Positions 15,800 through 43,618 of a stretch of 64,000 bases of DNA are shown one piece after another. The stretch is taken from NCBI GenBank assembly GCA_002499545.1, contig DAME01000004.1, positions 15,577 through 79,576 on the forward strand, read 5' to 3'. The stretch's first letter is position 1. The number at the start of each line of letters is the position of its first letter. The translations under genes were made by a program, and so were the position numbers. Under the pieces are notes generated by a model. That model did no database searches and was not told where the DNA came from. It worked only from the letters and a program-made list of their open reading frames with translations. This DNA is from Euryarchaeota archaeon UBA88. Its GTDB lineage: Archaea; Thermoplasmatota; Poseidoniia; Poseidoniales; Poseidoniaceae.

Positions 15800-15878
15800 G
15801 GTAGAACCAGTCGTAACTTGACTTTCACCCCTTCGCCTTGAAATGTCCAAAAAGGCATGTTCATGAGTGCGGCACGAT

Positions 15879-15888: not shown

Positions 15889-16404
15889 ATGCAAGAACCA
15901 ATGCTCCGCCTCAACGGAGTGAATGAAAACCTCAAGATTCGCGTGGAAACCACGCTGCAAGGTCCAGATTCACCCGGAAAAGTGGCGAAGGCACTCCACG
16001 CTTTGTTTCCAGAATTTGCGATACCGCACCCCATTATTGAGCCTGAATTAGGCAGTGCAAACGACCAGCATTGGGCGTGTGATCAGGTGCCCCTTGACCA
16101 CTTTATCCAACAGCTCCACCGCCAACAAATATTGGATACTGCTTTGGATTACATGTCGACTCACTATGCTGATGGATCAACAATGTTCACCCTCTCACGG
16201 CAGGCTGCACTGGCAGGGAAAGTCGCTTTTCCGTTACCGACAGAGGTCCCACTTGGGGGGGTTATTACCGTTCACTTAGAAGGTGAAACACTTGCAGATT
16301 GGTTGGAAGCTGCAACCTGGCATCGCGGGCGTGATTCAGTTCCAAAATCAATACACGATGACCGCACTATGTCTGGAGATGGTGAAGCAGTCACGTGGAT
16401 TTGA
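15889..16404 (+). CDS. UPF0201/COG1931-like predicted RNA-binding protein
   Basis: LKIRVETTLQGPDSPGKVAKALHALFPEF resembles the family pattern v-v-a-v-PTED-x-KV-x-Al-nlFP. A later stretch, TLSRQAALAGKVAFPL...PLGGVITVHL, resembles the lnKQAA...PLGpI pattern. ATG 15889 is preceded by AGGAGG (15879-15884) with a 4 nt spacer. Confidence 0.45.
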   Translation: MQEPMLRLNGVNENLKIRVETTLQGPDSPGKVAKALHALFPEFAIPHPIIEPELGSANDQHWACDQVPLDHFIQQLHRQQILDTALDYMSTHYADGSTMFTLSRQAALAGKVAFPLPTEVPLGGVITVHLEGETLADWLEAATWHRGRDSVPKSIHDDRTMSGDGEAVTWI

Positions 16405-17443
16405 CCAGATAACCCGTCTTCCTCATCCACGCTACGATTGCTTCATCGTTTCCCAACCAATCCAGAGGAGAATCGTCGAGGATGTTTCGCCATTGAATCG
16501 ATTGATGTGATGTCCAGTGCTGTGAGTCCTCGAAAACGGGTGATGTGTCAACCCGGGTGCAAGGTATTGCATGGAGTGCAATGTCCGTATGTGAAAGGCT
16601 GTGGAAAAAGGTACCAATGGATTGATGGGCCTCTACTATCCAACCGAATTCCTCTCCAATTTCCCTTACAATCGCCGTTTGTTTTGATTCACCAGGCTCC
16701 ACCTTGCCACCGGGAAACTCCCATTTTGCACCGTGTACTGCGTCCGGAATTCGCTGTGCAACGAGGTACGAATCTTCGTTGGTTATCAAAGCACAAACAA
16801 CATTGAGAACAGGCCGGTACATCATCCGTTCAAGTATGTCTTCAACCAATGCCGTTCCGTCTTCAACACTGTATTGATCAGGGCCTGGGAGGTGAAGAAA
16901 AAAACATGGAATTGATGATCCAGATTGTGAATCAGGGCTTTGAAGCGTTGAGAGTGTGCGATACATGGTTTCATTGCAGAGAAAAGTCCCCGCATCCTCT
17001 GATAATTCCCATTCTGCTTTCCAATCAATGTTTTGCCATGCCTTGAGGGGGGCGCTGGACCAAACATCGCCGTTACCCGTAAGAGGACTGTCCACGATAC
17101 GCCGACCATCATTATCCGGGATTCGCATGGCGAGACGATCTTGTGCACGAGTTTCAAAACGTGGGATTGAGCATGAGTCGCATTGCCCAATGTGAAGAAT
17201 TGCATCCCAATGTTCACCATTCAGCAACCTGTGGGCAATTTCTACTGAACCTGTAGCGTCAACTGACAGAACTTTGGTCTCGATTTGGATGTTGATTGGC
17301 ACCTCACTATGCTGGCGTAAATCCTGCCAGGGGTCGATACATTCGAGTTGTTTGGGAAGTGATTCAACGACATCCTGCGAAATATTCCTTTCATGGGAGC
17401 CAAAGGGTTCGAAACCAGTTACCAGAACCCGAGCCATGGACAT
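16391..17443 (-). CDS. Fusion protein: pyrrolidone-carboxylate peptidase (C15, Pcp) N-domain + NUDIX (MutT-like) C-domain
   Basis: The N-domain has ARVLVTGFEPFGSHERNISQ, AGTFLCNETMY (catalytic Cys context) and FFLHLPG (His context). The C-domain has the NUDIX box GGKVEPGESKQTAIVREIGEEFG preceded by WEFPGG. ATG 17443 (MSMARVLVTGFEPFG) is preferred over the 17671 extension, which would overlap the divergent gene at 17475. Confidence 0.8.
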   Translation of the reverse strand: MSMARVLVTGFEPFGSHERNISQDVVESLPKQLECIDPWQDLRQHSEVPINIQIETKVLSVDATGSVEIAHRLLNGEHWDAILHIGQCDSCSIPRFETRAQDRLAMRIPDNDGRRIVDSPLTGNGDVWSSAPLKAWQNIDWKAEWELSEDAGTFLCNETMYRTLSTLQSPDSQSGSSIPCFFLHLPGPDQYSVEDGTALVEDILERMMYRPVLNVVCALITNEDSYLVAQRIPDAVHGAKWEFPGGKVEPGESKQTAIVREIGEEFGWIVEAHQSIGTFFHSLSHTDIALHAIPCTRVDTSPVFEDSQHWTSHQSIQWRNILDDSPLDWLGNDEAIVAWMRKTGYLVKST

Positions 17444-17474
17444 GCGTAGGTTCACCAGTTTTTGATACCTTGAC

Positions 17475-17864
17475 ATGAGGAACAGGGGGCATATTGACAA
17501 ATGCAGTACACCAGCGCGTGTCATGGCGCCCGAAGATTCGCAATCAGAGATGGTTGTAGAGGATGAGGCAAAAACCGTTTCCGACACGCGACCGGTGCGG
17601 TTGTTCCGTGAAATTTGGAAAGAATTCACATTTGGAGTTGGTGCTTGGGGGACGTTACGACCACTTTTCACTGCGCTGTTAGCAGCCGTGCCATTTTTAT
17701 TCTTAGGACAACACGTTAATCGACGTCATCAAAAAGCCATAGATTGGTCACTGTTACAGATTCCATTGGCTCTCACAATTGTACTGTGGTTTGGCTTATG
17801 GCTCTACTCAATTTTTGACGCTTGGCGTGAGGCGACTCAATTGATTTCACAATCGAGCGACTAA
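17475..17864 (+). CDS. Small membrane protein (2 TM), hypothetical
   Basis: 129 aa. TM helices LFTALLAAVPFLFLG and IPLALTIVLWFGLWLYSIF. Diverges from the Pcp-NUDIX gene. Its stop overlaps the stop of the convergent gene at 17861. Confidence 0.45.
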   Translation: MRNRGHIDKCSTPARVMAPEDSQSEMVVEDEAKTVSDTRPVRLFREIWKEFTFGVGAWGTLRPLFTALLAAVPFLFLGQHVNRRHQKAIDWSLLQIPLALTIVLWFGLWLYSIFDAWREATQLISQSSD

Positions 17865-18652
17865 GGTCGCCATAATTGGTTTTCAGCCTCAATTGCACCG
17901 CTTGCTAGTCCGGTCAAGTCATTGAGGTCGTCTTGGTCAAATTCGGTCGGGATTTCATTATCAAAGAAATTTCCAATGGTTCTGGATTCAATAGCCCAGT
18001 ACATCACGGATTCTTCATTGTTTGAGTGGTTAGGATGGTCGCTGTCTTCATGGTCAGCAGGCGAGGTGTAGACAGTATTCACAAGGCCAAGAAGATGCCC
18101 AAACTCGTGAATAACAACACTGTTCTCAACTTTTTCAGCAGACGGACGATTCAGAAAGCCACGTGCTTCTTGAACAGAATCCCCAAAAATCGCTACAGTG
18201 GAGGCATCCACCGCAACACCCAAGACGCTGTCATCGTCGTAGGTTCCAGCAGGGAGAATCATTTGCCAATACAGAGTAGAGCCATCCAGAGGATCGTGTG
18301 ATTTCAACTCCCACCCAGCATCGCGAACGTCTTGTGCACTCCACGAACCGTCACCCGGGAGTTGGGATTCTGTGAGGAGGATTTGAATCCCATTCGGCTT
18401 ATCACACACCGATTCCAATCGTTGTTTGAGAAGATCTGTGGTCGAGGATTCGGGCTCATATCCAGGATGGTAATCGATTTCCACGATCATCGACGTATAC
18501 TTGGAACCATCCAAACATGCAAGTGTCAGGCTGCCCGGGATTCCGTGATCTTCACCCAGATCAAGGAGATTGTCCGTCCCCATGCAGCCGCTGAGAGCAG
18601 GACAAATGAAGAGGATGAACAGTACGCTCCACGCTTGCTTCTGTTGCGCCAT
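17861..18652 (-). CDS. Secreted zinc metalloprotease lipoprotein, metzincin-like (HEXXH)
   Basis: The signal peptide ends in the lipobox-like LSGC. The active-site region is VIHEFGHLLGLVN (HEXXHXXGXXN), with SVMY downstream as a possible Met-turn. Confidence 0.65.
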   Translation of the reverse strand: MAQQKQAWSVLFILFICPALSGCMGTDNLLDLGEDHGIPGSLTLACLDGSKYTSMIVEIDYHPGYEPESSTTDLLKQRLESVCDKPNGIQILLTESQLPGDGSWSAQDVRDAGWELKSHDPLDGSTLYWQMILPAGTYDDDSVLGVAVDASTVAIFGDSVQEARGFLNRPSAEKVENSVVIHEFGHLLGLVNTVYTSPADHEDSDHPNHSNNEESVMYWAIESRTIGNFFDNEIPTEFDQDDLNDLTGLASGAIEAENQLWRP

Positions 18653-18687
18653 GGTGTAACGAAGCGGTCTTCATTTTCAAACCATTG

Positions 18688-19146
18688 TTACCATTCTTCT
18701 GGGATTTCCAGAGGAGAGAAAAGTTGACCCGGACCTTTGGCCTTGGATAGCTGTTGGCGGGAAAGTGCCTCCCAGGGTCGCAATGCGAGCAAACCCTCGG
18801 CTACCGAAGCATCGATTTCGACCAGCGTAACGCGTATCAATGTCGCTAAGATGTCCATGCGATCTTCATCGATAATGTTGAATATTTTTTCGAGTTCAAA
18901 GGAAAATCCTGTGTCACCTTGATCGGCTAATTCAATATCCCAAGGGTGGGTCACAGTTTCAGGGAATTCTTGGCCAGTTGCACGTATGTGCTCGTCAAGC
19001 GACCGTGAGAGACCTGCAATGTGCTTGCTGAGGACCAAACTCACTTCGATGAGTGGCATGTTCAATTGGTTGATGAGGTTGACAACTCGTTCCTGTAGGG
19101 TCACCATACCTTCGACCGCAGAATCTTCTCCGCTTGACATGGACAC
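18688..19146 (-). CDS. Small acidic cytoplasmic protein, hypothetical
   Basis: 152 aa with no signal peptide or TM. It starts 3 nt (GTG 19146) or 9 nt (ATG 19140) after the stop of the 1807 aa gene, so it is probably translationally coupled. It ends PLEIPEEW. Confidence 0.5.
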   Translation of the reverse strand: MSMSSGEDSAVEGMVTLQERVVNLINQLNMPLIEVSLVLSKHIAGLSRSLDEHIRATGQEFPETVTHPWDIELADQGDTGFSFELEKIFNIIDEDRMDILATLIRVTLVEIDASVAEGLLALRPWEALSRQQLSKAKGPGQLFSPLEIPEEW

Positions 19147-19149
19147 AAC

Positions 19150-22100
19150 TCACTTTTTCAAAGCCTCAACATACTGCCAGCCGAAGTGTTCCCACTGGTG
19201 TTGAGTCCAACCAGCTGGAAGTCCTGTTGGAGGAAGCGGTGGTGGTGCACGGGGCGCTGCTGCCACTGCCTGAACCGGTGCAGGTTGCTGCACAGTTGGC
19301 ACAGGGTCTGCTTGGATTGGTGGTTGTGACAAGGTTAGACCGGCTGGAGGGGGAACGTTGCTCATATCCAATTCGGGGATGGTTTTACCACCGTCGAGTT
19401 CTTCCAACACTTCGGCGGTTTGGTCTTCAGCAGCCACTTCAAAGGCTTCGGAACGGATACGTCTGTTCATGACGAGCATCCACATGGCCATACTCAACGA
19501 AAGAAGCGCAATCAAATACAGAACGATGCTGAAACGACCTTCTTGAGCCTGCTGAGCAAGAGCATCTCCATCACGAATTGTTTCTTCCTTGATGAGTAAC
19601 GGTGTCAGTGTTTTACGATCCATTTCCACTTCATCGACAAGCACAAGGAGGCGGAATTCAAGTGCATCACTGGAAGATCCATCTGCGACGGTGGAAAGCG
19701 TTCCAGTGACTGACTGACCGGCAGTTGCCACCGCATCATATCGAGCTACATCTTGCCAGAAACCACCTTCGACAGCGCGCTGCAGCACGAAAGCAACATC
19801 GCCCTTACCACCATCGTTCTTTACTTCAAAGTTCATACCAACCTCTTGATTTTCAACCGGACTAGGGTCGTCCCACGAAAAGGAACTCATGTCACTATCA
19901 AGGTCAATACTTGGTCCAAGAAGTGCCAAGGACCACGAAGCAATAGGCTCCGAGATTGAATTGCCAATCGTATCGAATGGATTACCCGCTGAATCCGAAC
20001 CTGAAACCCATACTTCGACGGTGTAGGAAGGTAGCAAAGTTGTCGCACCGGTATCAGTCAAGTCAAGACTCCCCGTCCAGAAAAATTGACCTCCGAACGG
20101 TGTCGTATCAGGAAGAGGGACACTTCCTCGTGAAATTTCTGCTTCACCAGCACGAACTCGGTAGTGAAGGACCGCAGGCTCGTCGAGATCAAACCCGTAA
20201 TCATCGAGCGTTTCCAACATGACCAAAAGGTCACCGCATGCTCCGATTGAGAGTGGTGAACTCGATGAAACATCGTTGAGTGAAATGGCTGAAATAGTTG
20301 GCCTCGAGTTGTCGACTGCCAAACGAACGCGTGGAATAACAGATGTTTCATCAAGTGCAAAACCGGGTAAATCATCCAACCCAAGTCGTAGATCAAGATG
20401 GCCCGATGGGACCGAAGGAATCAACAAGTCAAGGCTGAATTCACCGTCATCTCGTGTCGATGTGGTCCAAACATTATCGTAGTCACCAAAGGTAACGTCG
20501 AAAGCCCCAGCAGGTGCTGGCGTCTCATCTTCGGAAAACAGTACGCGACCGTTCACTCGAAGTGCTTGACCCGCACCAATGAGAGTTTCATCAAATTCCG
20601 TGTTGTAGTGGTTGGTTCCGTCACGTAACTCTACGGCGCGTATGTGACCGTCCATTGTGTCAAATCTGAAATCATTATCCAAACTCCAAGCATCGTTGCC
20701 AAAACCGGCTGTCGATTCGAAACACGGAGTCACCTCTCCAACATTACACGGTAAATCAGTCACGCTAATCTTCGGAATTATCAAGGATGCTCCGTCGGTA
20801 TCAAAAGATTCAGGGAATGTCCAGGTTAACTGGAATCGTGCTGAAATCTTGATGATGCTGTTGTTTTCTTCTGCAAGACTCACCGATGAATAAAGATTGG
20901 ACACAGCAATATTGGATGATCCGGATTCCATGGAAGCAACAGGAGCATCATCCAACCCTTTTGATAGGGTGATGTAAATGGACGATTCATCGTCATCAAA
21001 GTCTCCACCAAGGGCGAGTTGAATGTACTGAATATCTTGCCAACCGTTGCGGTCTGAAAGAACGATTTGGGCAGTGTAGGGTATGCCGGGGTGCAATGGT
21101 GCTCCATCATCGTGTCCGAGGATGGTTGAGTTGTCGAGATCGAGTTGAGGTTCAAATTCAACTCGGATTTGATAGGTCCCAAGATCGTTGTCCCAGTTGG
21201 GTGCTGTTTCGCCCGGCACATAGCCACAAGGGAGGGAACTGTCGGGGCATACTGGACCCCCGCCCATTGCAATGGCGTTTTGTTGAGGATCTGATCCGGT
21301 CACAAAGTAGGATACTTTCTGTCCGTGCTGGAGCATGGAGTCATCGATTAGACCATCGAAAATGTTGAGACCACCCGATTGAGTATCGGGCGAAGAGAGG
21401 GTCTTGAGTTCGTATTCGTCACTGTTGGGAAGACCGTCAAAGTTGTAATCACTGCATCCAATGGCTTCACTTGCTTTGCATCCAATCCAATAATTGAGCG
21501 TCAATTGCGTTGGAGGGTCGACTGAATCCTGAACGATAACACTGACTGCTTGTCCGCCCGGAGCAGGTGGTCCTGCATGGCGTTCAGAGCCATCAGACGG
21601 AGTTGACGAGAGTACCAGAGGCGAGTTTCCATCAAGGATTAGTCGAATGGTATTGTATCCTGCATTGGTGTAGGTTGAGCCGTTAGGTGTGTCAACGGCT
21701 TCAACATAGAACACCATTCCACCAGGCTCCGATTGAATTGGTGACTTGAAGGTAATGTTGTACTCTCCAAATGCTGGATTTTGCTCCTGAGCAAGCACCA
21801 TAGGCTCGCCAATTGGATCGCCATCATAGGTCACGTTCTGACCCAAAACTCGCAATGAAAATTGCCCTGCAAGAGGTGAAAGTTGGGAATTTTGGAAGTG
21901 GATTCCTCCGGTGAATGAAAGATTGAAACCGCCTCTTACCCAGTCCAAAGAATACAACTCTCTACCGGTCTCTTCAAAGACACGAAGACCGTCTAATTGT
22001 ATGTCGTTTTCAATCACGAGGTCCAAGCTTTCAGTTTCCCAAGCCGTAACGGCCAGCCCGAGGTCATCTTCAACAGAAACGAGTGCTTGGGTGCCCGATT

Positions 22101-24573
22101 CGTCATCCCACGACCAGTTTACCGTCATCGGAATACGTATTGCAACCATTCCGAATGAATCAGTGGTCGATGTACAATTGGCCACATCAAACTGAATGAT
22201 TCCATCACCATCGCTTACCACAGAGCATGCATCGCCGCGCTCCCAGTCGAAAGCTGGGTTTTCGCCGTACGAGTTATTGAGCGCAATGAGGACTTTCGTT
22301 ACTCTGTCTACTTCATCACTTGGAGCAACTCGAACCTCGAGATTTCGAGCAATACCATCTGGGGCGAGCATGCCACCCTCCATGCTAGCATCGATCACCC
22401 GTGTCTGCATCTTGTACGAGATGTCAATGTTTGAAATCTTAACACGGCCGGAAGTAGCTGCTTTAACTGCGATTGGAATCAAGACATCACCCTCGCCGTT
22501 CTCAGGAATAATGGAATTGAAAGAATCGACCAAGGTCGGTGCATTCTTTACATCTACCGAAACAACCGAATCGTCGCTGGCTATGACTGCTGATTCATTG
22601 AGGAAAAGCAGTGACTCCCAATCCCAAACCAAATCGTTACCGACATCCAACATAGGTCGGTCGGGGTAGCCTTCTTCATAATCAAGGGTGAATGAATCAA
22701 CAAGCGGTGTCAGTAGTGGGTCAGTGCTCGACATAGTTACCGCATATCGTATTGTGTCACCTGCTTCGGTCGACGGGAAACTGACCTCTTGATTGTTCGT
22801 TGCCGGAAGCCAGCTGGAACCATTATCGTTTGAGACTTGAACCAAAACAGAAGTTCCAACGGGAACATCCGCCACCCACGAAGGACGAACTTTACCGACT
22901 TTGGTTCCAGTAGTCAACGGGCTAGAAGTCCAACTTCCGGATTGAAGATATTCAGTTGAGTATTCGACATCAACCCACCAAGATACAGCCGTGGATCCAA
23001 TCAGTTGGGCTTTCCATACCAATTCTGTCCCCGGATAATCGAAGTGGATTGTCGAATTCGAAGTCACAGACTCCCAATGCGTGCCGTTGTCTGCAGAAAC
23101 CCAGTAATCAACTCGGTCGCCGACAGAAGCGGCTGACCAATATGTTTCAACGTTAACGCCGAGTACGGGGTCATCTGAATGAGTAACTGGGCCGTACCAC
23201 GTTGTTGTTCCAGGTGCTGGTGTCGTTTTGTATTGCCAACCGGTTCCATACTCTCGGTAGTACAACGTTGAAGATGCCCAAGTAGAGTAGCCGCAATCAA
23301 CGGTCACAAATCGGTTACCATCGTACTGCAAACCGTATCCGAGAGAAGACAGCAAACGTGTACCGGTTTGGGGGACTAGAGAAGTTGATGAACCTGAAAC
23401 GGCCCATGCTTCCAAATTGTCTTTATCGTTGCTCGAAGTTCCCTTTTGGCAGCGCATGAAAAAGGTTGTTTCGTTGACTTCAAGCCCACGGACTTGCTGT
23501 CCAGTTTTCCCGCATTCCCATGAACTACCAGACGATGAAGAGTAGGAATACATGTCTTCGCCGCGAGTATATTGTCCGTCGGCTTGGTCACCGAAAGTAT
23601 AGGGTACGATTCGTCGTTGAGCGTTGTGAACAATCCACACCTGGTCACTGGAACGGTCGTATGCAATTGCGGTATAATCCGAATACTGTGGTGAAACGTC
23701 GTACGAATCGATGCATGTCCAAGTATCATCACGTGAAATGTCGAGTTCTAACACACGATGATACTGCGTAGGTGCAGACGATGAGTAGTGATAGCGATAA
23801 CCAGAAAGAATTGCAAACATTCGTTCATCGTCGGTGATGGTCCAATCTCGGAATCCATAGCTTCCGTAGTAGGAACTAGGGTGCAAACTTGCAATCGTAC
23901 ACTCACCTTGGTCCAGAGTAATAACCGATTCTTTGGTTGCATTGTTCGGATACAAACGATGAACGATGTTGCTGAATGTAGAGGTGCTCCATGTCGACAT
24001 GAACAACCAGTCATGGTGCTTGAGAATAGCACCCTGACTCTGCTTCATCAAATTGGTTGATGTTTTGAGTACTTGTTGTGAAAATCGACTCTCAGTTGCG
24101 TTCGAGGTGTGCGGTTGGCGTATGGCGTACGATCCATTGTCCAGCCAAGCATCAGATTCGTTGTTGACAACTTCATCGTATCCGTGGGCAAAAAATTCGT
24201 TTGAAGTGTTAGAAAACGCCAAACTGAGGTCACCACTACGAGCATCAACAGAGGAAGAGGTCCCTTCAATCCAGTCATCTCTTTCATCGGCCATCGTCTG
24301 ACTCCACCCAGTTGCGGAGGCACCTGATAAGGTCATGGAAACATCGGTAACCAAAGCACCCTTTGGAACTGAAACCATGGCACCAGAGTCAGGATTAGCA
24401 CCTTGGTAGAGCGCCACGTATTCACTGGAACCATCGTGAAGAGTGTAAATGTGACGCGATACACCCGTCGCTTCAGCAGGAGTAATTACGTGGTCAGCAA
24501 GGGGGCTCATCGGTGCTAAAACCATGACTAAAAAGAGCAGCAACATTACGCCGCGCCCGTCTTCTCGCTTCAT
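19150..24573 (-). CDS. Giant surface protein (1807 aa): signal peptide, Asp-box (BNR-like) repeats, C-terminal TM and Pro-rich cytoplasmic tail
   Basis: Signal peptide GVMLLLFLVMVLAPMSPLA. Asp-box-like S-x-D-x-G-x-x-W motifs VSADNGTHW and VSNDNGSSW. TM helix FSIVLYLIALLSLSMAMWMLV near the C-terminus, then a P/A/Q-rich tail ending LPAGWTQHQWEHFGWQYVEALKK. AGGGGGGT lies 7 nt upstream of the ATG. Confidence 0.7.
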   Translation of the reverse strand: MKREDGRGVMLLLFLVMVLAPMSPLADHVITPAEATGVSRHIYTLHDGSSEYVALYQGANPDSGAMVSVPKGALVTDVSMTLSGASATGWSQTMADERDDWIEGTSSSVDARSGDLSLAFSNTSNEFFAHGYDEVVNNESDAWLDNGSYAIRQPHTSNATESRFSQQVLKTSTNLMKQSQGAILKHHDWLFMSTWSTSTFSNIVHRLYPNNATKESVITLDQGECTIASLHPSSYYGSYGFRDWTITDDERMFAILSGYRYHYSSSAPTQYHRVLELDISRDDTWTCIDSYDVSPQYSDYTAIAYDRSSDQVWIVHNAQRRIVPYTFGDQADGQYTRGEDMYSYSSSSGSSWECGKTGQQVRGLEVNETTFFMRCQKGTSSNDKDNLEAWAVSGSSTSLVPQTGTRLLSSLGYGLQYDGNRFVTVDCGYSTWASSTLYYREYGTGWQYKTTPAPGTTTWYGPVTHSDDPVLGVNVETYWSAASVGDRVDYWVSADNGTHWESVTSNSTIHFDYPGTELVWKAQLIGSTAVSWWVDVEYSTEYLQSGSWTSSPLTTGTKVGKVRPSWVADVPVGTSVLVQVSNDNGSSWLPATNNQEVSFPSTEAGDTIRYAVTMSSTDPLLTPLVDSFTLDYEEGYPDRPMLDVGNDLVWDWESLLFLNESAVIASDDSVVSVDVKNAPTLVDSFNSIIPENGEGDVLIPIAVKAATSGRVKISNIDISYKMQTRVIDASMEGGMLAPDGIARNLEVRVAPSDEVDRVTKVLIALNNSYGENPAFDWERGDACSVVSDGDGIIQFDVANCTSTTDSFGMVAIRIPMTVNWSWDDESGTQALVSVEDDLGLAVTAWETESLDLVIENDIQLDGLRVFEETGRELYSLDWVRGGFNLSFTGGIHFQNSQLSPLAGQFSLRVLGQNVTYDGDPIGEPMVLAQEQNPAFGEYNITFKSPIQSEPGGMVFYVEAVDTPNGSTYTNAGYNTIRLILDGNSPLVLSSTPSDGSERHAGPPAPGGQAVSVIVQDSVDPPTQLTLNYWIGCKASEAIGCSDYNFDGLPNSDEYELKTLSSPDTQSGGLNIFDGLIDDSMLQHGQKVSYFVTGSDPQQNAIAMGGGPVCPDSSLPCGYVPGETAPNWDNDLGTYQIRVEFEPQLDLDNSTILGHDDGAPLHPGIPYTAQIVLSDRNGWQDIQYIQLALGGDFDDDESSIYITLSKGLDDAPVASMESGSSNIAVSNLYSSVSLAEENNSIIKISARFQLTWTFPESFDTDGASLIIPKISVTDLPCNVGEVTPCFESTAGFGNDAWSLDNDFRFDTMDGHIRAVELRDGTNHYNTEFDETLIGAGQALRVNGRVLFSEDETPAPAGAFDVTFGDYDNVWTTSTRDDGEFSLDLLIPSVPSGHLDLRLGLDDLPGFALDETSVIPRVRLAVDNSRPTISAISLNDVSSSSPLSIGACGDLLVMLETLDDYGFDLDEPAVLHYRVRAGEAEISRGSVPLPDTTPFGGQFFWTGSLDLTDTGATTLLPSYTVEVWVSGSDSAGNPFDTIGNSISEPIASWSLALLGPSIDLDSDMSSFSWDDPSPVENQEVGMNFEVKNDGGKGDVAFVLQRAVEGGFWQDVARYDAVATAGQSVTGTLSTVADGSSSDALEFRLLVLVDEVEMDRKTLTPLLIKEETIRDGDALAQQAQEGRFSIVLYLIALLSLSMAMWMLVMNRRIRSEAFEVAAEDQTAEVLEELDGGKTIPELDMSNVPPPAGLTLSQPPIQADPVPTVQQPAPVQAVAAAPRAPPPLPPTGLPAGWTQHQWEHFGWQYVEALKK

Positions 24574-24644
24574 TTGTTTGACCCCCCTTCATTCGACCAT
24601 GCGGTGCGAGGGATTTGAAACATACCCCTGCACATGACGGTGCA

Positions 24645-27600
24645 TCATCCTGTTTGACGTGAATCATAACGGATTGGAGAGGAGTCCCCTCGAATTCCAT
24701 CTTCCTCATCATCATGGACTTCAAACCAGTCAACAAGCCAGTCTCCATCGGAATCCCAATTCGTTGGATCGGTACCTTCTGCGATATGGTCATCGTCCAA
24801 ATCCAGCAGATACCAACCGTATTCATGTTCTCCAACATCACGGACAGGAGCCGAATTTGGTGAACCGGTGTAGTAAATTTCCCAAGCATCGGTACGGTTA
24901 CCTGCAAGATGAACAACATCATTGCTCGAGTCAATAACGAGGAAATTGGTATCACGATCATCCACAATGTAGGCGAACCGAATATCGTTGGAAGAAGATT
25001 GATCCATTTTTAGGTAATTTTCGCTGCTAGCACCGGTGTCGTCAAGTTTGAGAAGTGATGCCCTCAATTGCCACCATTCGGTTACGATTTGTCCATCGTG
25101 AATCAATCCACTCAACCGAACTGCATTGGGTGATGAGAGGTCGGAATCGGTAATTGCATAAAATTCTTGGAAATTCGTGTACGGTTCGTAAACACACCCC
25201 GCCCCGGAACAGTCCCAATTTCCGTCTTCATCGGGGTCATAGTTTGCATCGATTGGATCAGCAGGGTTCATTGTGAACCAGGTGAAAGCAAGGTCGGGGC
25301 GAGATAGAATCCCTTCGGAGCCTTGCTGGGAAAGCGGCAAGCAGGAATTGGTTGCAGTCGTACATGCACCGCCAGTCGACGCATCAATCCACACGACTTT
25401 GATTTGCAGGAATGAACTGAAATTATCATTCGATTCATTCCAAGCCTTCGCATATTCAAACCAGTCAGGAAGCATGTCACCGTCTGTATCATTATCACTC
25501 GGATTGATTCCGTACTTGAAGACCTCACGCCCATCGGATAAATTGAAATCTTGAGTGTGAGAGGTTACCAATCCGTTTGATACGGTGGTAACATACGACA
25601 CGCTATCGGCATCTGAGTCATTTAGGTCCGGGCGTGTTTGATTATCCCACTCCATCCAATTGGTGAAAGGTAGATCGCCAATTCCAGGTTGAATTACAGC
25701 AGTACTTTGGGAGAATTCACGTCCGTCCCACGTACCTTGGACCGCAGGGATATCGAACGAAGTTCGGTCGTACCAACCATCGTGGTCACCGTCATAATTG
25801 ACATCCCAAGGATTCAACGGATTGGCAGCCCAATGGTTCTCAGTAGTCACATCGTCCATTCCGAATGTCGCATAGCAGTATTCCCAGCCATCCTCGATAC
25901 CATCGGAATCTGAATCCACGCTTGTGGGGTCGGCCACGCCAAGTAGAGTGCTGTTGAAGTTGTTCTCGTCGAATTCGTTAATCATGTCCATTCGATCGGC
26001 GCTTGCCTGACTCTTCGAAACAAAATCATTGTACAGTGACTGACGAGCTTCAATATAACTGAGGCCCTGTTCTTCAACATAAGCTTCAATAGCATCGGTT
26101 CCGAAATCCATGATTCCAATCGATGTTGGTACTGAAAAACGGTCGAGATACTTACCCCACGTTCGTGATTCCCATTCACGAAGATTCGTGAATCGTTCAT
26201 CCATTGAGAGATTTCCATCACCGTCGCAATCAAAACTATCGCCATCGGTATCGAGGTTGACGTCGCTGTCAATGAGTGGGTTCATACTCCAGCGATTCTC
26301 TTCAAGATCCCACACCGTGAACCAGTATTCAAATCCGTCATACATTCCATCGTCATCGGTATCTGGATTGGTCGGGTCTGTCATTCCAAGCAGCATTGAC
26401 AAAATGGGGTTCGGCGGGACGCCTGCCTGCCAGTCATTGAAATCTGCCAGCAAGCGCTTGCCACGGGTTTCCTTCGTGATGAGAATATTGAACACACGTT
26501 GAGCTTTCTCAGTCGGTTGCTGAACGTCGCCGTCGATGTGCAACAACGGAGCATCACTGGGGTGGTCGATTCCGTTTTCAGGACTTGAATTAGCTAGTGC
26601 AAACTCTTTGCTGTCAATCAAACCATCTCCATCGCCGTCAAAGTTCCCGTCACCTGCCACAAGAGGGTTCAGCGTCCACGTTTGTGCAGTGAGGTTCCAG
26701 GAAGTGAACAACTGTTCGATACCGTCGATCATTCCGTCGCCATCTGAATCGACGTTGTTTGGGTCAGCAGTCCATCCCGAGCGATTAATCTGGTCACTCG
26801 TGATGAATGAGCCAAAGGAGGATTCGACTGCATTTCCTGGCCACTGTTGGAGGGCGAAGGCCGAACCTACAGTCGTAACAAACCATTGTGGAGCTGAACG
26901 GTTCGCATTCGTTTCCGAATATTCTGGAGCAATGGCATTGTATTCTTCCCAATTCGCCATTCCATCATCATCAGCATCTTGCCAACGATCAACAGGGTCA
27001 AGGGGGTTCAAAGTCCACTCGTCAGCCAGCACATCCCAGCGAGCAAACCAAATTTCCCAGCCGTCTGGCATTCCGTCGTTATCCGAATCTGCATTGAGCG
27101 GATCTGATGCACCCACACTGGTGACGCTCTGGAGAGCCGTAACTGCTCCGGATGCGCGTTCACCAAATGTCGCTTCAGGTTCACCTTGCAAACTAATGTT
27201 GTCAAACAGGTCGGTTGTGAAACCGTTTGGAAGTGTTTCGCCGGAGAGAGTCTGGTTGTTCAAAAACAAATTCGAGCGAACGTGGAATTCCAAGTAGTTC
27301 ACGAATGCTTCTGAATCTTGCAAAATTCCGTCGTGGTTGATATCGTATCCGTCTCCATCTGGATTTTCAAATGCGTCCGACGCATTCAGTGGATTCACAC
27401 CTGTTCGAGAGGGGTCCCATGTGCAAGAACCACCTGATTCCCAGCCATCAGGGAGAGAATCCCCGTCAGAATCAATGTTGTTCGGATCAGCTTCAAACCA
27501 TTCGAGGCTTGAATTGACAGATTCGCCGTGAGATTCAAACAGCAGGCCTTCCGTTGCAGCACCTCGGACCAGTGACCACTGGTATTCACAGAGATTCGCT

Positions 27601-30398
27601 AAGCCGTCCCGATCAGCGTCCCAATTAGCATCTTCGGCACGATTCGGGTCCAACGTCCAGTTATTTCCTCCAGTAAAACTCGAACCGACCCATCGCCGAT
27701 GTTCGATTTCCCAACCATCCGGCATTCCATCCCCGTCACTGTCAGCGTTGGTGGGGTCAGTCCCCATGTCAGGACTGGAAAGAGCAAGGTACGTACTGTT
27801 CGCAGTCAATGTAGCGTCGTCGTCGCAAATGTATTCCATTTGCACTGAATAGTGACACCAGAGAGTAGTTGATTCGTAAAAGAATCCGAAGTACTCTTCA
27901 CCGTCACCAAGCCCATCACCGTCTGTATCACCAGCAGAAGGGTTGGTAGAATTGTATCCGTTTTCGGTCGTTGAAGTATAACGGAATTCATCGAGGTTCG
28001 TCCAAAGGCGTTCCAAAAATCCGTCATCGAGTTGATCAAGATCGAGTCCGTCGCCATCGGGGTCAAACAATGCGTCCCAAGGATCGGTAGGATCCAGGCC
28101 ATTCGCCACTTCCCAACCATCGGGCATTCCATCATTATCCGAGTCGTTTGCTCCGGGGTTCATGAGCTCTAAATTTGCATAACGACCAGGCGATGAACCA
28201 GCATACACAGTCGTATTACCGTCAAGCAACATCGTATTCAGCGCCACAATCTGCCCGTAAATTGGTGCTTCATCTTGCATCCCATAAACGGCAGAATAAT
28301 CACCGTCAATGGCCCATGTACCTCGTTGACTTCCGACCAAGATTTCATCACCAGTTGGATACAATGAATGGATGTTGTTGTACTCGCGAAGGTACTTCCC
28401 CTCGATACCAGGATGCTCCAAGAGACCGCTGTGGGAGATAGAATCGTCAATGATATTCAGCATGTGCACTCCGGAGGGTGTGCCGAACCACAACACTTGG
28501 GCGTTCGAGGAAGACGGGCCATCGAGTACCAGCGTTCGCACCTCAGCAGGATTAGCAACCATTCCAAACGACAAAGAACGTAGTTGGTCGATTTCTGTTG
28601 GATACGGGGTAATCTCAGTCGAGTAATAGAATCGCCATGACGGCTCAAATTCACCGCGTGCAGTGGATGTTTCGCCGATGAGAAGACCGTGATTTGTACC
28701 TACATATAGGGTATTTGCACCACCACCTGCAGGACCATGAGCGAGAGAGGAGACAGTGGAATTTGAAAGCCTCAAAGCCGACTCAAGACCTGTCGCTATC
28801 GAATAGATTTGGGAGATATCCGTGGAGGAAGTGACGTCAAACACCGCCCCTTCACCTGCAGAACCTAAGCCGAGAATCTGCGTGCTCTGACCCTCGACAT
28901 TGAGTTCAGTGATGGAAAAAATTTCTTCAGTCATCGACCAGTCCCATGTAGAAAGTTCTCCAAAGTCACCATTCGCTTGTATTGGAGCCGTAATCAGTCC
29001 GACATTGGATGCGAACGCCATGGCGAACATTGAGCCGTCAATTGAAAGAGGAATCCCCTGATGGAGTTCAACGCCTTGTGGCATCCAGTGGTCATAACTC
29101 GACATCGCAACATGGTCAATGACGGTTAATCCGTACCGAGTTGTAACGTACATCATCGATTCATCGACATCGATGTCTCGAACATCATGATGTATGAGAC
29201 TCACCGTGTCTGAGTCCGCAATAAATGAAAGAGGCATCGAACTCGAGAGTGCGTCAATGTCTCCGAGGGGAACCGTTTTCAAACCTGGAATCACAGAATT
29301 ACCGTTGTCTTCATGCACGAAGTATTCCTGAAGAGTGGACAAAGCCTCTCCGAAATCAAGAGCAGTGAGAGTTCGACTCACGTCCGGCGAGATACCCCCA
29401 TCCCTATTGGCGTCCCATCCATCGAGGTCCGGGTCAAGCAAAGCGTTGGTCCGGTTCAAAGGTTCAAGTCCAAAATGAACTTCCCATCCATCCGGAATTC
29501 CATCACCAAAGGAAGGGAAAAGACGACGCACGGAGAATCCATCCCAGTGATATCGGTCTGAATCTTCCAAAAGCGGGTCAGTTCCCAGCCATAGGTCTTC
29601 ATCGAGCACGTTGGTTGCATTCGTTGTACAAGCGGCAAGAAGATTCTGGAACGTTGCATTCGGTCCAGTAGGAATGTACGGCCAATTCTCGAACACTGAG
29701 CCGTCAGGGAGTGAGGCAGAACACCACAGACCGTCAAGTTCAGTGGTATGGTACGACGGAGCACCTTGGATATACTCTTCAGGCGAAGAGTAACGTTCAG
29801 TTGTCGATAATACACCATCTCGATTTACGTCAAACCCGTCTTCGTCGGGGTCATCGTACAAATCCGAAGCGTTTAATGGATTGAATTGTGGACAATCGTA
29901 TCGTAGAGTGATAGAGTCATACCCTCCAATTCGCTCACACATGTAGACTTCATAACCATCGGGCATGCCGTCACCATCGGTGTCTGAATTGCGTGGGTCA
30001 AGATAGGATCTTTCACCTTCACTGTCCACAATACCTGTCAAACCACGCGGAAATCCAGGAGCGGTACAATTTGCCGGATAGGGCCAACAATACTCTTCGG
30101 TAGAATTCAAGCCATCTCGATCGTTGTCTACAAGTGCGTCGGAGGCGTCGTCATTATTCATGCCGGGGATGATGACTTCTCTGCCGTCAACACTCGTCCA
30201 ATTCATCCATTCTTCGAACAGGTTTTCATGGACGTCAGGGATTTTGTCCCCGTCGGTATCCGTCGAAGGCGGCTTGGAACCATCGGTCGTATCTGGGTGG
30301 AGGTTTGAGACGGGTGAAACTGCTGGGAATTGAGACATAAACAGTAAACTTGCAACGACTGCAAGTGTTGTTAGAAGAGTGGTTAAACTTCGTCGCAT
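24645..30398 (-). CDS. Giant secreted calcium-binding-repeat protein (about 1917 aa) with thrombospondin type 3-like repeats and a central beta-propeller
   Basis: I count more than 20 D-x-D-x-D-G-x-x-D type motifs by eye, for example DSDGDGMPDGWE, DSDNDGMPDGWE, DTDDDGMYDGFE, DSDGDSLPDGWE and DADRDGLANLCE. The central region (about 28170-29300) has repeated xxGTxxGL blades (LYVGTNHGLLIG, LWFGTPSGVHML, ILVGSQRGTWAI, MYVTTRYGLTVI). I see no C-terminal TM. The start is uncertain: GTG 30485 (ORF track), ATG 30440/30437, or ATG 30398 (MRRSLTTLLTTLAVVASLLFMS, the best signal peptide). Confidence 0.7.
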   Translation of the reverse strand: MRRSLTTLLTTLAVVASLLFMSQFPAVSPVSNLHPDTTDGSKPPSTDTDGDKIPDVHENLFEEWMNWTSVDGREVIIPGMNNDDASDALVDNDRDGLNSTEEYCWPYPANCTAPGFPRGLTGIVDSEGERSYLDPRNSDTDGDGMPDGYEVYMCERIGGYDSITLRYDCPQFNPLNASDLYDDPDEDGFDVNRDGVLSTTERYSSPEEYIQGAPSYHTTELDGLWCSASLPDGSVFENWPYIPTGPNATFQNLLAACTTNATNVLDEDLWLGTDPLLEDSDRYHWDGFSVRRLFPSFGDGIPDGWEVHFGLEPLNRTNALLDPDLDGWDANRDGGISPDVSRTLTALDFGEALSTLQEYFVHEDNGNSVIPGLKTVPLGDIDALSSSMPLSFIADSDTVSLIHHDVRDIDVDESMMYVTTRYGLTVIDHVAMSSYDHWMPQGVELHQGIPLSIDGSMFAMAFASNVGLITAPIQANGDFGELSTWDWSMTEEIFSITELNVEGQSTQILGLGSAGEGAVFDVTSSTDISQIYSIATGLESALRLSNSTVSSLAHGPAGGGANTLYVGTNHGLLIGETSTARGEFEPSWRFYYSTEITPYPTEIDQLRSLSFGMVANPAEVRTLVLDGPSSSNAQVLWFGTPSGVHMLNIIDDSISHSGLLEHPGIEGKYLREYNNIHSLYPTGDEILVGSQRGTWAIDGDYSAVYGMQDEAPIYGQIVALNTMLLDGNTTVYAGSSPGRYANLELMNPGANDSDNDGMPDGWEVANGLDPTDPWDALFDPDGDGLDLDQLDDGFLERLWTNLDEFRYTSTTENGYNSTNPSAGDTDGDGLGDGEEYFGFFYESTTLWCHYSVQMEYICDDDATLTANSTYLALSSPDMGTDPTNADSDGDGMPDGWEIEHRRWVGSSFTGGNNWTLDPNRAEDANWDADRDGLANLCEYQWSLVRGAATEGLLFESHGESVNSSLEWFEADPNNIDSDGDSLPDGWESGGSCTWDPSRTGVNPLNASDAFENPDGDGYDINHDGILQDSEAFVNYLEFHVRSNLFLNNQTLSGETLPNGFTTDLFDNISLQGEPEATFGERASGAVTALQSVTSVGASDPLNADSDNDGMPDGWEIWFARWDVLADEWTLNPLDPVDRWQDADDDGMANWEEYNAIAPEYSETNANRSAPQWFVTTVGSAFALQQWPGNAVESSFGSFITSDQINRSGWTADPNNVDSDGDGMIDGIEQLFTSWNLTAQTWTLNPLVAGDGNFDGDGDGLIDSKEFALANSSPENGIDHPSDAPLLHIDGDVQQPTEKAQRVFNILITKETRGKRLLADFNDWQAGVPPNPILSMLLGMTDPTNPDTDDDGMYDGFEYWFTVWDLEENRWSMNPLIDSDVNLDTDGDSFDCDGDGNLSMDERFTNLREWESRTWGKYLDRFSVPTSIGIMDFGTDAIEAYVEEQGLSYIEARQSLYNDFVSKSQASADRMDMINEFDENNFNSTLLGVADPTSVDSDSDGIEDGWEYCYATFGMDDVTTENHWAANPLNPWDVNYDGDHDGWYDRTSFDIPAVQGTWDGREFSQSTAVIQPGIGDLPFTNWMEWDNQTRPDLNDSDADSVSYVTTVSNGLVTSHTQDFNLSDGREVFKYGINPSDNDTDGDMLPDWFEYAKAWNESNDNFSSFLQIKVVWIDASTGGACTTATNSCLPLSQQGSEGILSRPDLAFTWFTMNPADPIDANYDPDEDGNWDCSGAGCVYEPYTNFQEFYAITDSDLSSPNAVRLSGLIHDGQIVTEWWQLRASLLKLDDTGASSENYLKMDQSSSNDIRFAYIVDDRDTNFLVIDSSNDVVHLAGNRTDAWEIYYTGSPNSAPVRDVGEHEYGWYLLDLDDDHIAEGTDPTNWDSDGDWLVDWFEVHDDEEDGIRGDSSPIRYDSRQTG

Positions 30399-30630
30399 TC
30401 CATGACCTGCCCACAAAGCGTACGCTTCGCAATACATCATCCCTCTCACACCACTTATGAGGATGATGGAGCGATGTTCGTACACGCCTTCATTGATTCA
30501 CTCCTAAAATACGGATTTTTCTTTGACCTACGATGGATGGTGATGACCCACCCCCTCCCAAATGCAACTTCTCCAAGCGAACCAAGCGGTGTCTTCAAAG
30601 GCCTCTCGCGACCGCTGTGACATCGATACC

Positions 30631-31449
30631 ATGGGCATGACGCTAACGCATCTCGGAACTGGAAGTCGTGGAAATGCGACGCTCCTTGAAACCGAACATG
30701 CCAAAGTCATCATCGACCAGGGTTTTAGTGGAGTTCAATTTGAAAAGCGGCTCGGAAGAATGAACCTTGAACCCACCGATATTGACGCGATTTTCATCAC
30801 ACATCACCACGGAGACCACGGCGGAGGCGCAGCACTGGCACAGAAACGCTGGAGCATTCCCGTATGGGCCAATAAACGGACTGCTGAAGCCCTTGACCTC
30901 GACACTCAACTAACGAACTATTTTGAGGCCTTGGACATGATTGAAGCTGGAAAAGATTTGCAACTTCTTCCAGTACCCGTACCGCACGCCGATTCAGATA
31001 ACGTTGCGTTTGTAGCGAGCCATCATGGTCGTCGAGCAGCGGTCATCACTGACCTGGGTTCTTGGACCGATGAATTGGTGACACATGTGCGGGGTTGTGA
31101 GCACATTTCAATCGAAGCCAATTACGATGAAAAACGGTTGATGAACGGTCCGTATCCGTACTCGCTCAAAGAACGAATCAGTGGCAGAGGAGGTCACCTT
31201 TCAAACGATCAGACGGGTCAATTTTTGTCACTGGTCTGCACACCTGAGACAAAGAGCATAAGCTTAACTCACCTGTCTGGAAAAAACAATCTTCCACACC
31301 TCGCAGAATCGACTGTTTTGTATTATATCGAGGAAGTGTTTGGCGGCGATATATGGATTTGTGGTCAGGACGGGCCGGAACAGTCTCATTACATCGCCCA
31401 TGATGAATTGAAAGTAGAATTCAACGATAAAATCGCAGATCTTGGATGA
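30631..31449 (+). CDS. Metallo-beta-lactamase fold hydrolase
   Basis: LTHLGTGSRGNATLLE at the N-terminus and the HxHxDH motif ITHHHGDHGGG, with later His/Asp ligand contexts (VPHADSD, THLSGKNN). ATG 30631 is preferred over the 30562 extension. Confidence 0.75.
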   Translation: MGMTLTHLGTGSRGNATLLETEHAKVIIDQGFSGVQFEKRLGRMNLEPTDIDAIFITHHHGDHGGGAALAQKRWSIPVWANKRTAEALDLDTQLTNYFEALDMIEAGKDLQLLPVPVPHADSDNVAFVASHHGRRAAVITDLGSWTDELVTHVRGCEHISIEANYDEKRLMNGPYPYSLKERISGRGGHLSNDQTGQFLSLVCTPETKSISLTHLSGKNNLPHLAESTVLYYIEEVFGGDIWICGQDGPEQSHYIAHDELKVEFNDKIADLG

Positions 31450-31504
31450 ATACGATTTCCAATGAATCACCCCCCTATGGGGGGGTGTCAAGGTGAATGG
31501 CTAA

Positions 31505-32590
31505 ATGATACCCAGCCGTGAGGTGTCTGTGAACGCACAGCGCAAGCATTCCTCGAGCCCATCCCTTCGCAGGGATACACGGGCAGTGAGCGAAGTGCTT
31601 GGCGTAGTGATGATGCTTGCAATGGTTGTCACCATTATGGGCGGGGTTTGGATTTTCCTAAACCCCTACATTTCAGATTTCGAAGACAATACAAATTGGA
31701 ACAGCGCAACAGGTATTGCTGAACGGTTTGAAGACCGAATTGACGTAGCAGGTGGTGCTCCGGAGGGGACAGGTATCCGCCACACTCTTGCACTCCAATC
31801 AACAATGATACGGCCAATCGAAAAAGTAGAAACCTGGACAATAGCTGCTGATTTAGTTCCAAACGAACGCGTGACTGTCCGACATCTCAACACCTCAGTG
31901 GTAGGAATTTACGCCATGAATGAAACGGCTCGAAGTATCACCATCGAGACTCCGACACAAACAGAACACTTCGAGTTCAACAGTTCGCATCAAGAAGTTA
32001 CCATCAACCATACTTCATCACGCCAGCATTGGATGACGATCACCGTCTTCAACCACGAGGGGGAGCCACTTCATCGAAGCGTATCTTACATTGTTTCCGG
32101 AATACAAATCACGACGATGCTCGGTCTTGGAGAGCATCAAATCGCCCTCATGAACGATGCACGAGTTGAACGCTTTCCAAACGAACCGTGGTCGGTAACA
32201 CAGTTTCCGAACATTGAACTCGATACGTTGGTCAACGGTGAACACAGACTTTCTATGGTGCTCAATGATGTCACCATCAACGGCACACTCGGATCTGGAA
32301 ACAACATAGGAATGAACATGATTTCTCAAGGACCAATGACGCTTTTCACCGGACCTGCTTACGACGTCACCTTCACTGTCACAAACGCACTGAACGATGT
32401 CATCACACCCCAATACCACGACTATCTCCTGAACGATTATACCCTTCATCGAGCATCTGGAACGCTCGACACCTATGTTGGATACGCGCCGTATTTACGC
32501 GCCAGCGGAGCAGATGGTTTCACCGTCGAAACCCATGGAGCTCCGCTATACCTTGAAGTCGATGTGCAACGAGTGGAGGTTTCACGATGA
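31505..32590 (+). CDS. Archaeal type IV pilin-like protein (class III signal peptide), 361 aa
   Basis: The N-terminus RRDTRAVSEVLGVVMMLAMVVTIMGGVWIFL matches the archaeal pilin N-terminal pattern (basic residues, small residue, VSxVLGxxLMLAIxV). AGGTGA lies 8 nt upstream of the ATG. The stop overlaps the next start (ATGA). Confidence 0.6.
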   Translation: MIPSREVSVNAQRKHSSSPSLRRDTRAVSEVLGVVMMLAMVVTIMGGVWIFLNPYISDFEDNTNWNSATGIAERFEDRIDVAGGAPEGTGIRHTLALQSTMIRPIEKVETWTIAADLVPNERVTVRHLNTSVVGIYAMNETARSITIETPTQTEHFEFNSSHQEVTINHTSSRQHWMTITVFNHEGEPLHRSVSYIVSGIQITTMLGLGEHQIALMNDARVERFPNEPWSVTQFPNIELDTLVNGEHRLSMVLNDVTINGTLGSGNNIGMNMISQGPMTLFTGPAYDVTFTVTNALNDVITPQYHDYLLNDYTLHRASGTLDTYVGYAPYLRASGADGFTVETHGAPLYLEVDVQRVEVSR

Positions 32591-42221: not shown

Positions 42222-42258
42222 AGATTGTACACCTCTTAGTTTGTCCATCACAATGACG

Positions 42259-42268
42259 GATATAATAC
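42259..42268 (-). promoter_or_regulatory. Candidate archaeal TATA box for the beta-helix surface protein gene
   Basis: The minus strand reads GTATTATATC about 40-46 nt upstream of ATG 42221. A transcription start ~25 nt downstream would leave a short leader containing the GAGGTG SD. Confidence 0.3.
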
Positions 42269-43612: not shown

Positions 43613-43618
43613 CCAAGG

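Follow-up and report, generated by a model that had tools for sequence, protein, structure and literature searches.

We describe here a block of four minus-strand open reading frames (ORFs) at 17861-30398 of the window, by which we mean the whole stretch of 64,000 nucleotides (nt) that was analysed. Running in the order G1, G2, S150 and Mzn, the block encodes two giant proteins with export signals, a small cytoplasmic protein and a lipoprotein-type protein that resembles zinc proteases, and it has been inherited across the archaeal order Poseidoniales, with modular losses in one part of it. The reading that we favour, with a confidence a little short of even, is that the four genes form an ancestral, vertically inherited and Poseidoniales-specific operon encoding a constitutive cell-surface complex, for which S150 would act as a biogenesis or coupling factor. 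The window comes from a Poseidoniaceae (Marine Group IIa, MGIIa) archaeon: it also encodes a CDP-archaeol synthase, an archaeal/eukaryotic-type S15, an archaeosine-TGT-like DUF5591 protein and archaeal pilin-like proteins, and the database relatives of S150 are labelled Poseidoniaceae, Poseidonia or Poseidoniales. The genes of the block are as follows (aa, amino acids).

24645..30398, minus strand: G1, a 1917-aa giant, predicted to be secreted, with a Sec-type signal peptide and no C-terminal anchor
19150..24573, minus strand: G2, a 1807-aa giant, predicted type-I membrane protein with a Sec signal, an all-beta ectodomain, a transmembrane helix and a cytoplasmic tail
18688..19140, minus strand: S150, a 150-aa acidic, Cys-free protein, predicted to be cytoplasmic and helical; likely start ATG 19140
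17861..18652, minus strand: Mzn, a 263-aa lipoprotein-type, zinc metalloprotease-like protein with a lipobox and HEXXH

An earlier note on this DNA had listed these same four co-oriented genes, and all are present as given, the small one there as 18688-19146. The gaps of 71, 3 and 35 nt that it reported are right for those starts, but with the likely ATG of the small gene at 19140 the 3-nt gap becomes 9 nt, and the product, which had been called a 152-aa protein, is most likely 150 aa long and identical to a database protein (P0001); it is acidic and predicted to be cytoplasmic. Short gaps and a shared strand are commonplace in prokaryotes, and the block exceeds chance because its co-orientation with short gaps persists across ~140 independent loci. 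By curated family thresholds none of the four proteins can be assigned, and the label on every database homologue that the S150 and G2 searches returned is 'hypothetical'; each of the four is an orphan family. In the literature we found no description of this operon, G2, S150 or Mzn, only a mention of 'thrombospondin genes' at the level of KEGG Orthology (KO) terms.

Inheritance and modular losses

A total of 173 loci was assembled, among them 80 from a scan of GTDB species genomes, all MGIIa, and 80 further ones from a metagenome scan seeded with S150 of the Marine Group IIb (MGIIb) type; 138 of the 173 could be scored on both sides of S150. At the 80 MGIIa loci the order G2-S150-Mzn is the same wherever the locus is long enough, and G1 lies upstream wherever it is covered. 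Distant S150 relatives (31-43% identity) led to two further lineages with G1-G2-S150-Mzn, one with 68% GC, including a 3.0-Mb contig (L087 and L088), and one with 43% GC (L089 and L090). The scorable loci take three forms.

G2-S150-Mzn: 77 of 138 loci, with G1 upstream wherever covered
G2-S150, no Mzn: 22 of 138 loci
G1-S150 directly, no G2 and no Mzn: 39 of 138 loci

The first form comprises every scorable MGIIa locus together with the two deep-branching lineages, and the linkage put forward in the earlier note is in this sense conserved among relatives. The Mzn-less group takes in the Thalassarchaeaceae metagenome-assembled genome (MAG) L092, and no MGIIb-like locus has room for Mzn, because S150 there abuts the convergent gene that bounds the block. 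At the G2-less loci S150 directly follows G1, in places overlapping it, and retains its C-terminal motif intact; the G1 homologue is full length (query residues 1-1916), ends in ...SPIRYDDR and has gained no anchor. At none of the 140 loci whose upstream side is visible does S150 lie away from a G1 or G2 gene. In a neighbour-joining tree of DnaJ, MGIIa and the two deep branches (L087/88 and L089/90) have the four-gene form; the forms without Mzn group as one clade, inside which those without G2 are a single subclade. The simplest history is therefore a four-gene ancestor, one loss of Mzn and, later, one loss of G2. L087 and L088, with their 68% GC, combine the full four-gene block and the same neighbourhood with a position in the DnaJ tree beside the MGIIb-like clade.

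Because first Mzn and then G2 are absent in MGIIb clades, the invariant core of the system is G1 plus S150, and this bears directly on how the parts may work together. Since S150 keeps both its tight coupling and its C-terminal motif where G2 is missing, it cannot act only through the G2 tail, and the proposal that it works through that tail is weakened by the 39-locus MGIIb subclade, which keeps S150 and its motif without G2. Likewise, because half of the lineages have no Mzn at the locus, proteolysis is not integral to the system; the idea that the protease processes or releases the complex has to reckon with its absence from every MGIIb-like locus, and Mzn is accessory. We also noted that a membrane GT2 glycosyltransferase gene three genes downstream (14768-15850, minus strand) is absent in exactly the 39 G2-less loci (L093 and L115-L170) and present wherever G2 is. 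GT2 and G2 were probably lost together in one clade-level event, which speaks only faintly for a functional link such as glycosylation of G2.

The four genes stand out from their surroundings as a unit. Inside the block the median gaps are 67, 10 (over 88 loci) and 37 nt, whereas the next gene in the same direction lies 350 nt away. A divergent metallo-beta-lactamase (MBL)-fold gene and the convergent gene orf129 delimit the block, and insertions occur only outside it. Every insertion seen lies between Mzn and the convergent gene: one of 5.9 kb in L041 and L051, which are two MGIIa species, and two extra opposite-strand genes in L087 and L088. Their coordinates (L041 7025-12510, L051 11266-16761, L087 11616-12733 and L088 11475-12611) may mark a local hotspot. 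The surrounding order is itself kept, with some 35 kb syntenic order-wide: upstream the divergent MBL-fold gene and two pilin-like DUF7289 genes, downstream C15/NUDIX, a small ORF, GT2, DnaJ, ArcTGT and S15. Median identity to the window (65-69 loci) is 67.5% for G1, 65.5% for G2, 62.8% for S150 and 60.5% for Mzn, compared with 69.1% for DnaJ and 39-53% for other neighbouring genes, and at the greatest distance G1 and G2 still align over their full length at 43-48% identity. The block is single copy at the locus, with one cluster per complete assembly sampled.

The four proteins

G1 begins with MRRS..., a start verified against the N-termini of homologues, and has a net charge of -268, 30 N-x-S/T sequons and 16 Cys. 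Its main features are these.

30312..30398, minus strand: N-terminal signal region MRRSLTTLLTTLAVVASLLFMSQFPAVSP, with a hydrophobic segment
25881..29984, minus strand: repeat region with 11 strict DxDxDGxxDxxE (TSP3-type) repeats, predicted to bind calcium, found by regular expression and Pfam TSP3_bac
28164..29156, minus strand: residues 415-745, ~7 blade-like 'x-G-T/S-x-x-G-L' repeats, a putative beta-propeller read from sequence motifs only

Across lineages the signal region follows the consensus MRR[SK]Q[ST]-h(15)-F[MVI]SQ, and the earlier description of G1 as having no visible anchor proved right, in that there is a signal peptide and no C-terminal hydrophobic segment. Its description as a calcium-repeat and propeller protein fared unevenly, with the repeats well founded and the propeller amounting to the blade-like motifs. 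Pfam TSP3_bac (PF18884) scores 24.5 bits on the G1 of the window against a cut-off of 25, and all six homologues tested match (best E 1.4e-14), so that by sequence G1 belongs with TSP3 repeat proteins and may be predicted to bind calcium. Profile searches of the PDB returned no sequence relative of G1, only a spurious match to neocarzinostatin. NCBIfam gives only repeat-level matches, to the Myxococcus proteins CglD and MtsD (NF033765 and NF047639), which likewise carry DxDxDGxxDxxE arrays in a large exported protein associated with adhesion or cohesion; the matches cover the repeats only (58.6 bits where 400 is required, and 23.8 bits where 800 is), and G1 differs in being archaeal, in having no VWA domain and in the rest of its sequence, which is unrelated. 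Rinke et al. (PMC6461757) found 'thrombospondin genes' to be widespread in Poseidoniales and tied them to adhesion, and their 'thrombospondin gene' is very probably G1.

The signal peptide of G2 is likely cleaved near AEA. Three further features of this protein recur below.

22810..23097, minus strand: SADNGTHW and SNDNGSSW, a pair of Asp-box motifs lying in consecutive beta domains of ~88 aa
19468..19533, minus strand: predicted transmembrane helix, residues 1681-1702, from hydropathy and conserved in homologues
19153..19467, minus strand: cytoplasmic tail of 105 residues with a juxtamembrane 'DQT..V', a Pro-rich linker and a C-terminal motif

An AlphaFold2 model of residues 27-1226, built on an alignment of 40 sequences (mean predicted local distance difference test score, pLDDT, 77.1), is entirely beta, with a sandwich at its N-terminus, a stretch in which a four-strand unit recurs, and a long run of beta-sandwich domains. 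Foldseek comparison of this model with the PDB returned tandem beta-sandwich arrays at low TM-scores and no enzyme; the matches include the Chlamydomonas mastigoneme, the MG domains of alpha2-macroglobulin and complement, and Ig tandems. G2, as modelled, therefore looks like a stalk-type surface protein. By sequence it has no match in Pfam, NCBIfam or a profile search of the PDB, and a Pfam scan of 21 homologues yielded only faint BNR, MG4, CARDB and CzcE signals. The name 'Asp-box protein', used for G2 in the earlier note, has as its basis just two SxDxGxxW motifs, at residues 493-500 and 581-588, both of them invariant in the 21 homologues; Pfam BNR (PF02012) is sub-threshold and seen in six of the 21, and the motifs sit in two consecutive beta domains rather than in a sialidase-type propeller.

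The transmembrane anchor and Pro-rich tail ascribed to G2 are both there. The tail ends in PPLPPTGLPxGWTxxQWxxFGWQY (19153-19245), and in tail alignments the juxtamembrane DQT..V and a GW[ST]xxQ core are kept in all lineages; because these motifs persist, the tail is functional. MGIIb tails are longer and carry, in their last ~60 codons, an EF-hand-like loop DSDGNRYLTAEEL (FFDSDGNRYLTAEEL or FDADGNGYLRQSEL), seen in L092, L095, L099, L107, L131 and others and missing from MGIIa tails; Pfam EF-hand_6 finds it with E of 0.003-0.05, below threshold. The motif GW[ST]xEQ was considered as SHOCT-like and rejected, as Pfam gives no support. Class III (pilin-type) signals on G1 and G2 were also considered, in view of 'GRG|VM' in the G2 of the window and of the adjacent pilin-like genes, and were ruled out by the N-termini of homologues: the 'RG' is not conserved (RS, RA and K variants occur), G2 homologues show a Sec-type c-region ..SP.A...AEAA, and those of G1 show MRR[SK]Q. 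A readthrough of the G2 stop codon into S150 would be in frame in the window, but this frame relation is not kept at other loci and the idea was dropped.

The AlphaFold2 model of S150 (pLDDT 80.6, predicted TM-score 0.73) is a bundle of helices in which an acidic loop is disordered and the C-terminal peptide, GPGQLFSPLEIPExW, is extended; this peptide is invariant (18691-18735, minus strand). Family-wide motifs are MPLIEVSLV, DRMDILDTLIR and the C-terminal G.LFSP...P.D[FW], and the last of these is conserved with or without G2. The peptide, which can be written G.LFSP(L)(E/D)(I/L)P(E)D(W/F), is near-invariant in the family, stands at the extreme C-terminus and is docking-peptide-like; it may loosely resemble the C-terminal 'LDIPxF' peptide of FtsZ, which we offer as a lead only. 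Against the PDB, Foldseek gave no match to the model at E<=0.001, and Pfam, NCBIfam, PADLOC and PHROGs likewise gave none. An exhaustive profile search of 1.84 billion representatives found 129 clusters only (at 50% identity), many of them fragments. We could therefore reject membership of a known family, as library scans, exhaustive search and Foldseek all ended without an outside relative, and relatives of S150, whether by sequence or by PDB fold, were found only in Poseidoniales. Nor is S150 a housekeeping protein, a possibility that the earlier note had entertained: it is confined to the 129 clusters and lies beside a G1 or G2 gene at 140/140 loci. If the model is right, S150 is a small protein whose fold is new and whose C-terminal peptide is invariant.

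Mzn carries an LSGC lipobox (...CPALSGC, 18584-18595) whose G22 and C23 are invariant in 22 homologues, so that lipidation may be predicted, as the earlier note had done in calling it a lipoprotein. The further label 'metzincin' fits less well. Like metzincins (M10, reprolysin-like M12B and pappalysin M43), Mzn has HExxHxxG; it also has a candidate Met-containing turn (SVMY), both within the motif HEFGHLLGLVN...H.ED...HS.N..SVMYW at 17996-18109. Unlike them, it departs from the extended motif HEXXHXXGXX(H/D) by placing Asn (N192, invariant in the 22 homologues) at the third-ligand position in place of His or Asp, and it has a His-rich insert of 25 residues before the candidate turn; it is also lipobox-tethered and archaeal, and all its scores fall below Pfam cut-offs. 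H201 or H209, both invariant and downstream of N192, could be the substitute zinc ligand. S215-V216-M217-Y218 is invariant and falls inside a sub-threshold Reprolysin_2 alignment, which makes it a candidate Met-turn as judged from the sequence. Pfam M10 (PF00413) reaches 19.6 bits against a cut-off of 24 over an alignment of 16 residues round HEXXH; sub-threshold M10 signals appear in 22/22 homologues, and there are reprolysin-like, M43 and DUF4953 ones besides. A profile search of the PDB found no sequence relative of Mzn.

Flanking and neighbouring genes

The elements that bound the block are given below.

17475..17864, plus strand: orf129, a conserved convergent gene for a small membrane protein of 129 aa, overlapping the stop codon of Mzn by 4 nt; bounds the operon on its 3' side
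30399..30561, no strand: divergent intergenic region of 163 nt between G1 and the MBL-fold gene, read from the sequence; presumed operon promoter
30562-31449, plus strand: divergent MBL-fold gene, conserved; upstream boundary

Across the loci then collected, orf129 gave 82 tblastn matches, on the opposite strand every time. A TATTTTA element lies near 30506-30512, inside the divergent region, and we presume that the promoter of the operon is located in 30399-30561. No non-coding RNA was found in the four-gene block, the sole Rfam match in the window being a tRNA at 59708-59781. The C15/NUDIX ORF (16391-17671, minus strand) overlaps orf129 from its start, GTG 17671, and is probably over-extended, since its homologues measure 314-345 aa and not 426 aa.

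Beside the MBL gene lie two genes for pilin-like proteins of 361 and 736 aa (31505-34797, plus strand), with DUF7289 and class III signals such as RA|VSEVLGVV. Together with the MBL gene (30562-34797) they keep their place beside the operon in MGIIa and L090/L091; L093, a G2-less locus, has no pilin-like genes, and a TPR/AAA gene lies directly against its MBL gene. A second group of giants with a protease occupies 37854-53419 on the minus strand, consisting of a 3246-aa ORF (43679-53419), then a subtilase S8 (42392-43621) and then a 1481-aa beta-helix/Big_7 protein (37854-42299). Paralogy of G1 and G2 with the other giant genes of the window, this group included, was considered and rejected, none being found. 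Two contigs with the cluster are filed as bacterial MAGs, under Salipiger bermudensis and Verrucomicrobiales (L063, CAXQWT010000018.1, and L086, NZEQ01000036.1), which is probably a binning error.

A proposed constitutive surface complex and its rivals

Taken together, these data suggest that what the operon makes is probably a lasting part of the cell surface and not a variable adhesin. Adhesins are usually variable; a constitutive surface complex is favoured because G1 and G2 are conserved at the level of DnaJ, occur in single copy at the locus and lie among housekeeping neighbours. In such a complex G1 would be exported through Sec, stiffened outside the cell by its many TSP3 calcium sites and probably N-glycosylated, and G2 would be exported likewise and held in the membrane by its C-terminal helix, presenting a propeller-like head on a stalk of tandem beta-sandwiches; where both occur, G2 probably docks G1. 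S150 would remain in the cytoplasm, its translation coupled right after the last giant gene, and is most likely a dedicated biogenesis or coupling factor, perhaps an export or assembly chaperone or a regulator, and probably not solely an adaptor for the G2 tail. Mzn would be a lipid-tethered extracellular zinc protease at the outer face of the membrane that may mature, trim or turn over the complex in MGIIa and is dispensable elsewhere. The complex may be a coat, a surface (S-)layer or an adhesive surface.

Several points weigh against this reading. The linkage of the genes is by itself weak evidence of shared function, because the whole ~35-kb neighbourhood is syntenic. Loss of G2 from a whole clade speaks against G2 as an indispensable anchor and leaves G1 with no visible means of surface retention, although G2 or Mzn could be encoded elsewhere in MGIIb genomes, as loss was scored at the locus only. 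S-layer proteins usually evolve fast, so the high conservation is not specific to a lattice. In favour of the reading, mirror-tree comparison with background divergence removed gave partial r values of 0.71 for G1-G2, 0.42 for S150-G1 and 0.35 for S150-G2, as against 0.05-0.29 for the orf129 control, but long proteins inflate this signal and the data points depend on one another. Finally, the chaperone role that we infer for S150 is purely that.

The earlier note had pictured an adhesion or particle-capture apparatus in which G2 holds G1, S150 binds the Pro-rich tail of G2 and Mzn releases or processes the complex, and we consider this rather unlikely. It draws on TSP3 repeats and tandem beta-sandwich stalks, both typical of adhesins, on the link already made between the 'thrombospondin genes' of Poseidoniales and adhesion (PMC6461757), and on the conserved tail of G2 and the tight spacing between G2 and S150. 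The claim that G2 holds G1 cuts both ways, as the distances of the two giants co-vary (partial r 0.71) and G1 nevertheless persists without G2 at 39 loci. At those same loci S150 stays beside G1, all MGIIb-like loci do without Mzn, and the modelled S150 has no recognisable proline-binding fold; moreover, DnaJ-level conservation of G1 and G2, in single copy at the locus and among housekeeping genes, is not what such an apparatus would lead one to expect.

A more specific form of the favoured surface complex, which we think unlikely as it stands, would make G1 and G2 S-layer-like envelope proteins of Poseidoniales, a calcium-stabilised two-component coat coupled to the cytoplasm through the G2 tail and, more universally, through S150. 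The comparison here is with SlaA/SlaB of the Sulfolobales S-layer (PMC10903991, PMC6911244), where the operon has the same order, a large unanchored outer glycoprotein and then a partner with a C-terminal transmembrane segment, and where beta-rich, acidic, sequon-rich exported proteins form the sole envelope layer of an archaeon. G1 and G2 would qualify as a tandem of this type, unanchored and transmembrane-anchored, on architecture only. Profiles of G1 and G2 showed no homology to SlaA/SlaB in the PDB, and neither SlaA nor SlaB is among the Foldseek matches listed for G2. There are also clear differences: both giants here are ~1800-1900 aa long, G2 has a conserved cytoplasmic tail of ~105 aa, the operon also encodes a cytoplasmic partner and a protease, TSP3 calcium repeats make up G1, and one clade does without G2. 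The strong conservation of G1 and G2 is unusual for S-layers too, so that a lattice is at most a possibility here.

It is quite improbable, in our view, that the four genes have only their position in common, as neighbours on one strand of a streamlined genome of high synteny, with no shared function and with S150 and Mzn acting on other targets. Gene order is indeed kept far beyond the block on both sides, and the loss of Mzn or of G2 leaves the remaining genes in place. However, gaps are far tighter inside the block than outside, insertions fall only at its edges, and once G2 was lost S150 came to lie tightly against G1, in places overlapping it. The four genes are moreover orphan families, with the range of S150 searched exhaustively and those of G1, G2 and Mzn sampled less fully, and residual rate co-variation is greater within the block than with the orf129 control.

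Hardly any weight can be given to a regulated release in the manner of the Lap system of Pseudomonas and relatives, in which S150 or the G2 tail would sense a signal in the cytoplasm (in MGIIb Ca2+, by way of the EF-hand) and G2 would relay it across the membrane to control cleavage of G1 by Mzn: the parts list is analogous to LapA/LapG/LapD (10.1101/2020.05.11.089839, PMC4694147), with a giant calcium-binding surface protein, a protease in the envelope and a connection through the membrane to an input from the cytoplasm, and MGIIb G2 tails do have EF-hand-like loops, but Pfam and NCBIfam show nothing homologous to the Lap components (LapG being a cysteine protease and LapA an RTX protein of the type I secretion system, T1SS, while LapD binds cyclic di-GMP), the signals here are Sec and not T1SS, the G2 ectodomain of ~1650 aa does not resemble a signalling receptor, half of the lineages have no protease and, as the main weakness, the lineages with EF-hand tails are exactly those without Mzn.

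Poseidoniales (Marine Group II) are the dominant and most abundant archaea of the sunlit surface ocean. To our knowledge they have never been cultured, and we know of nothing that has been established about their cell envelope. The operon described here is single copy at the locus and inherited across the order, with giants conserved like a chaperone gene and yet uncharacterised. If it does build the surface of these cells, then what viruses (magroviruses) and grazers touch first, how the cells stick to particles and which antigens could be used to label or capture them would all follow from it. The stepwise loss in MGIIb, first of the protease and then of the anchored giant, amounts to a natural experiment that can be related to the known ecological split between MGIIa and MGIIb. 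Should the S-layer coat prove true, the system would provide a transmembrane link from an archaeal surface layer to a dedicated cytoplasmic protein of a new fold.

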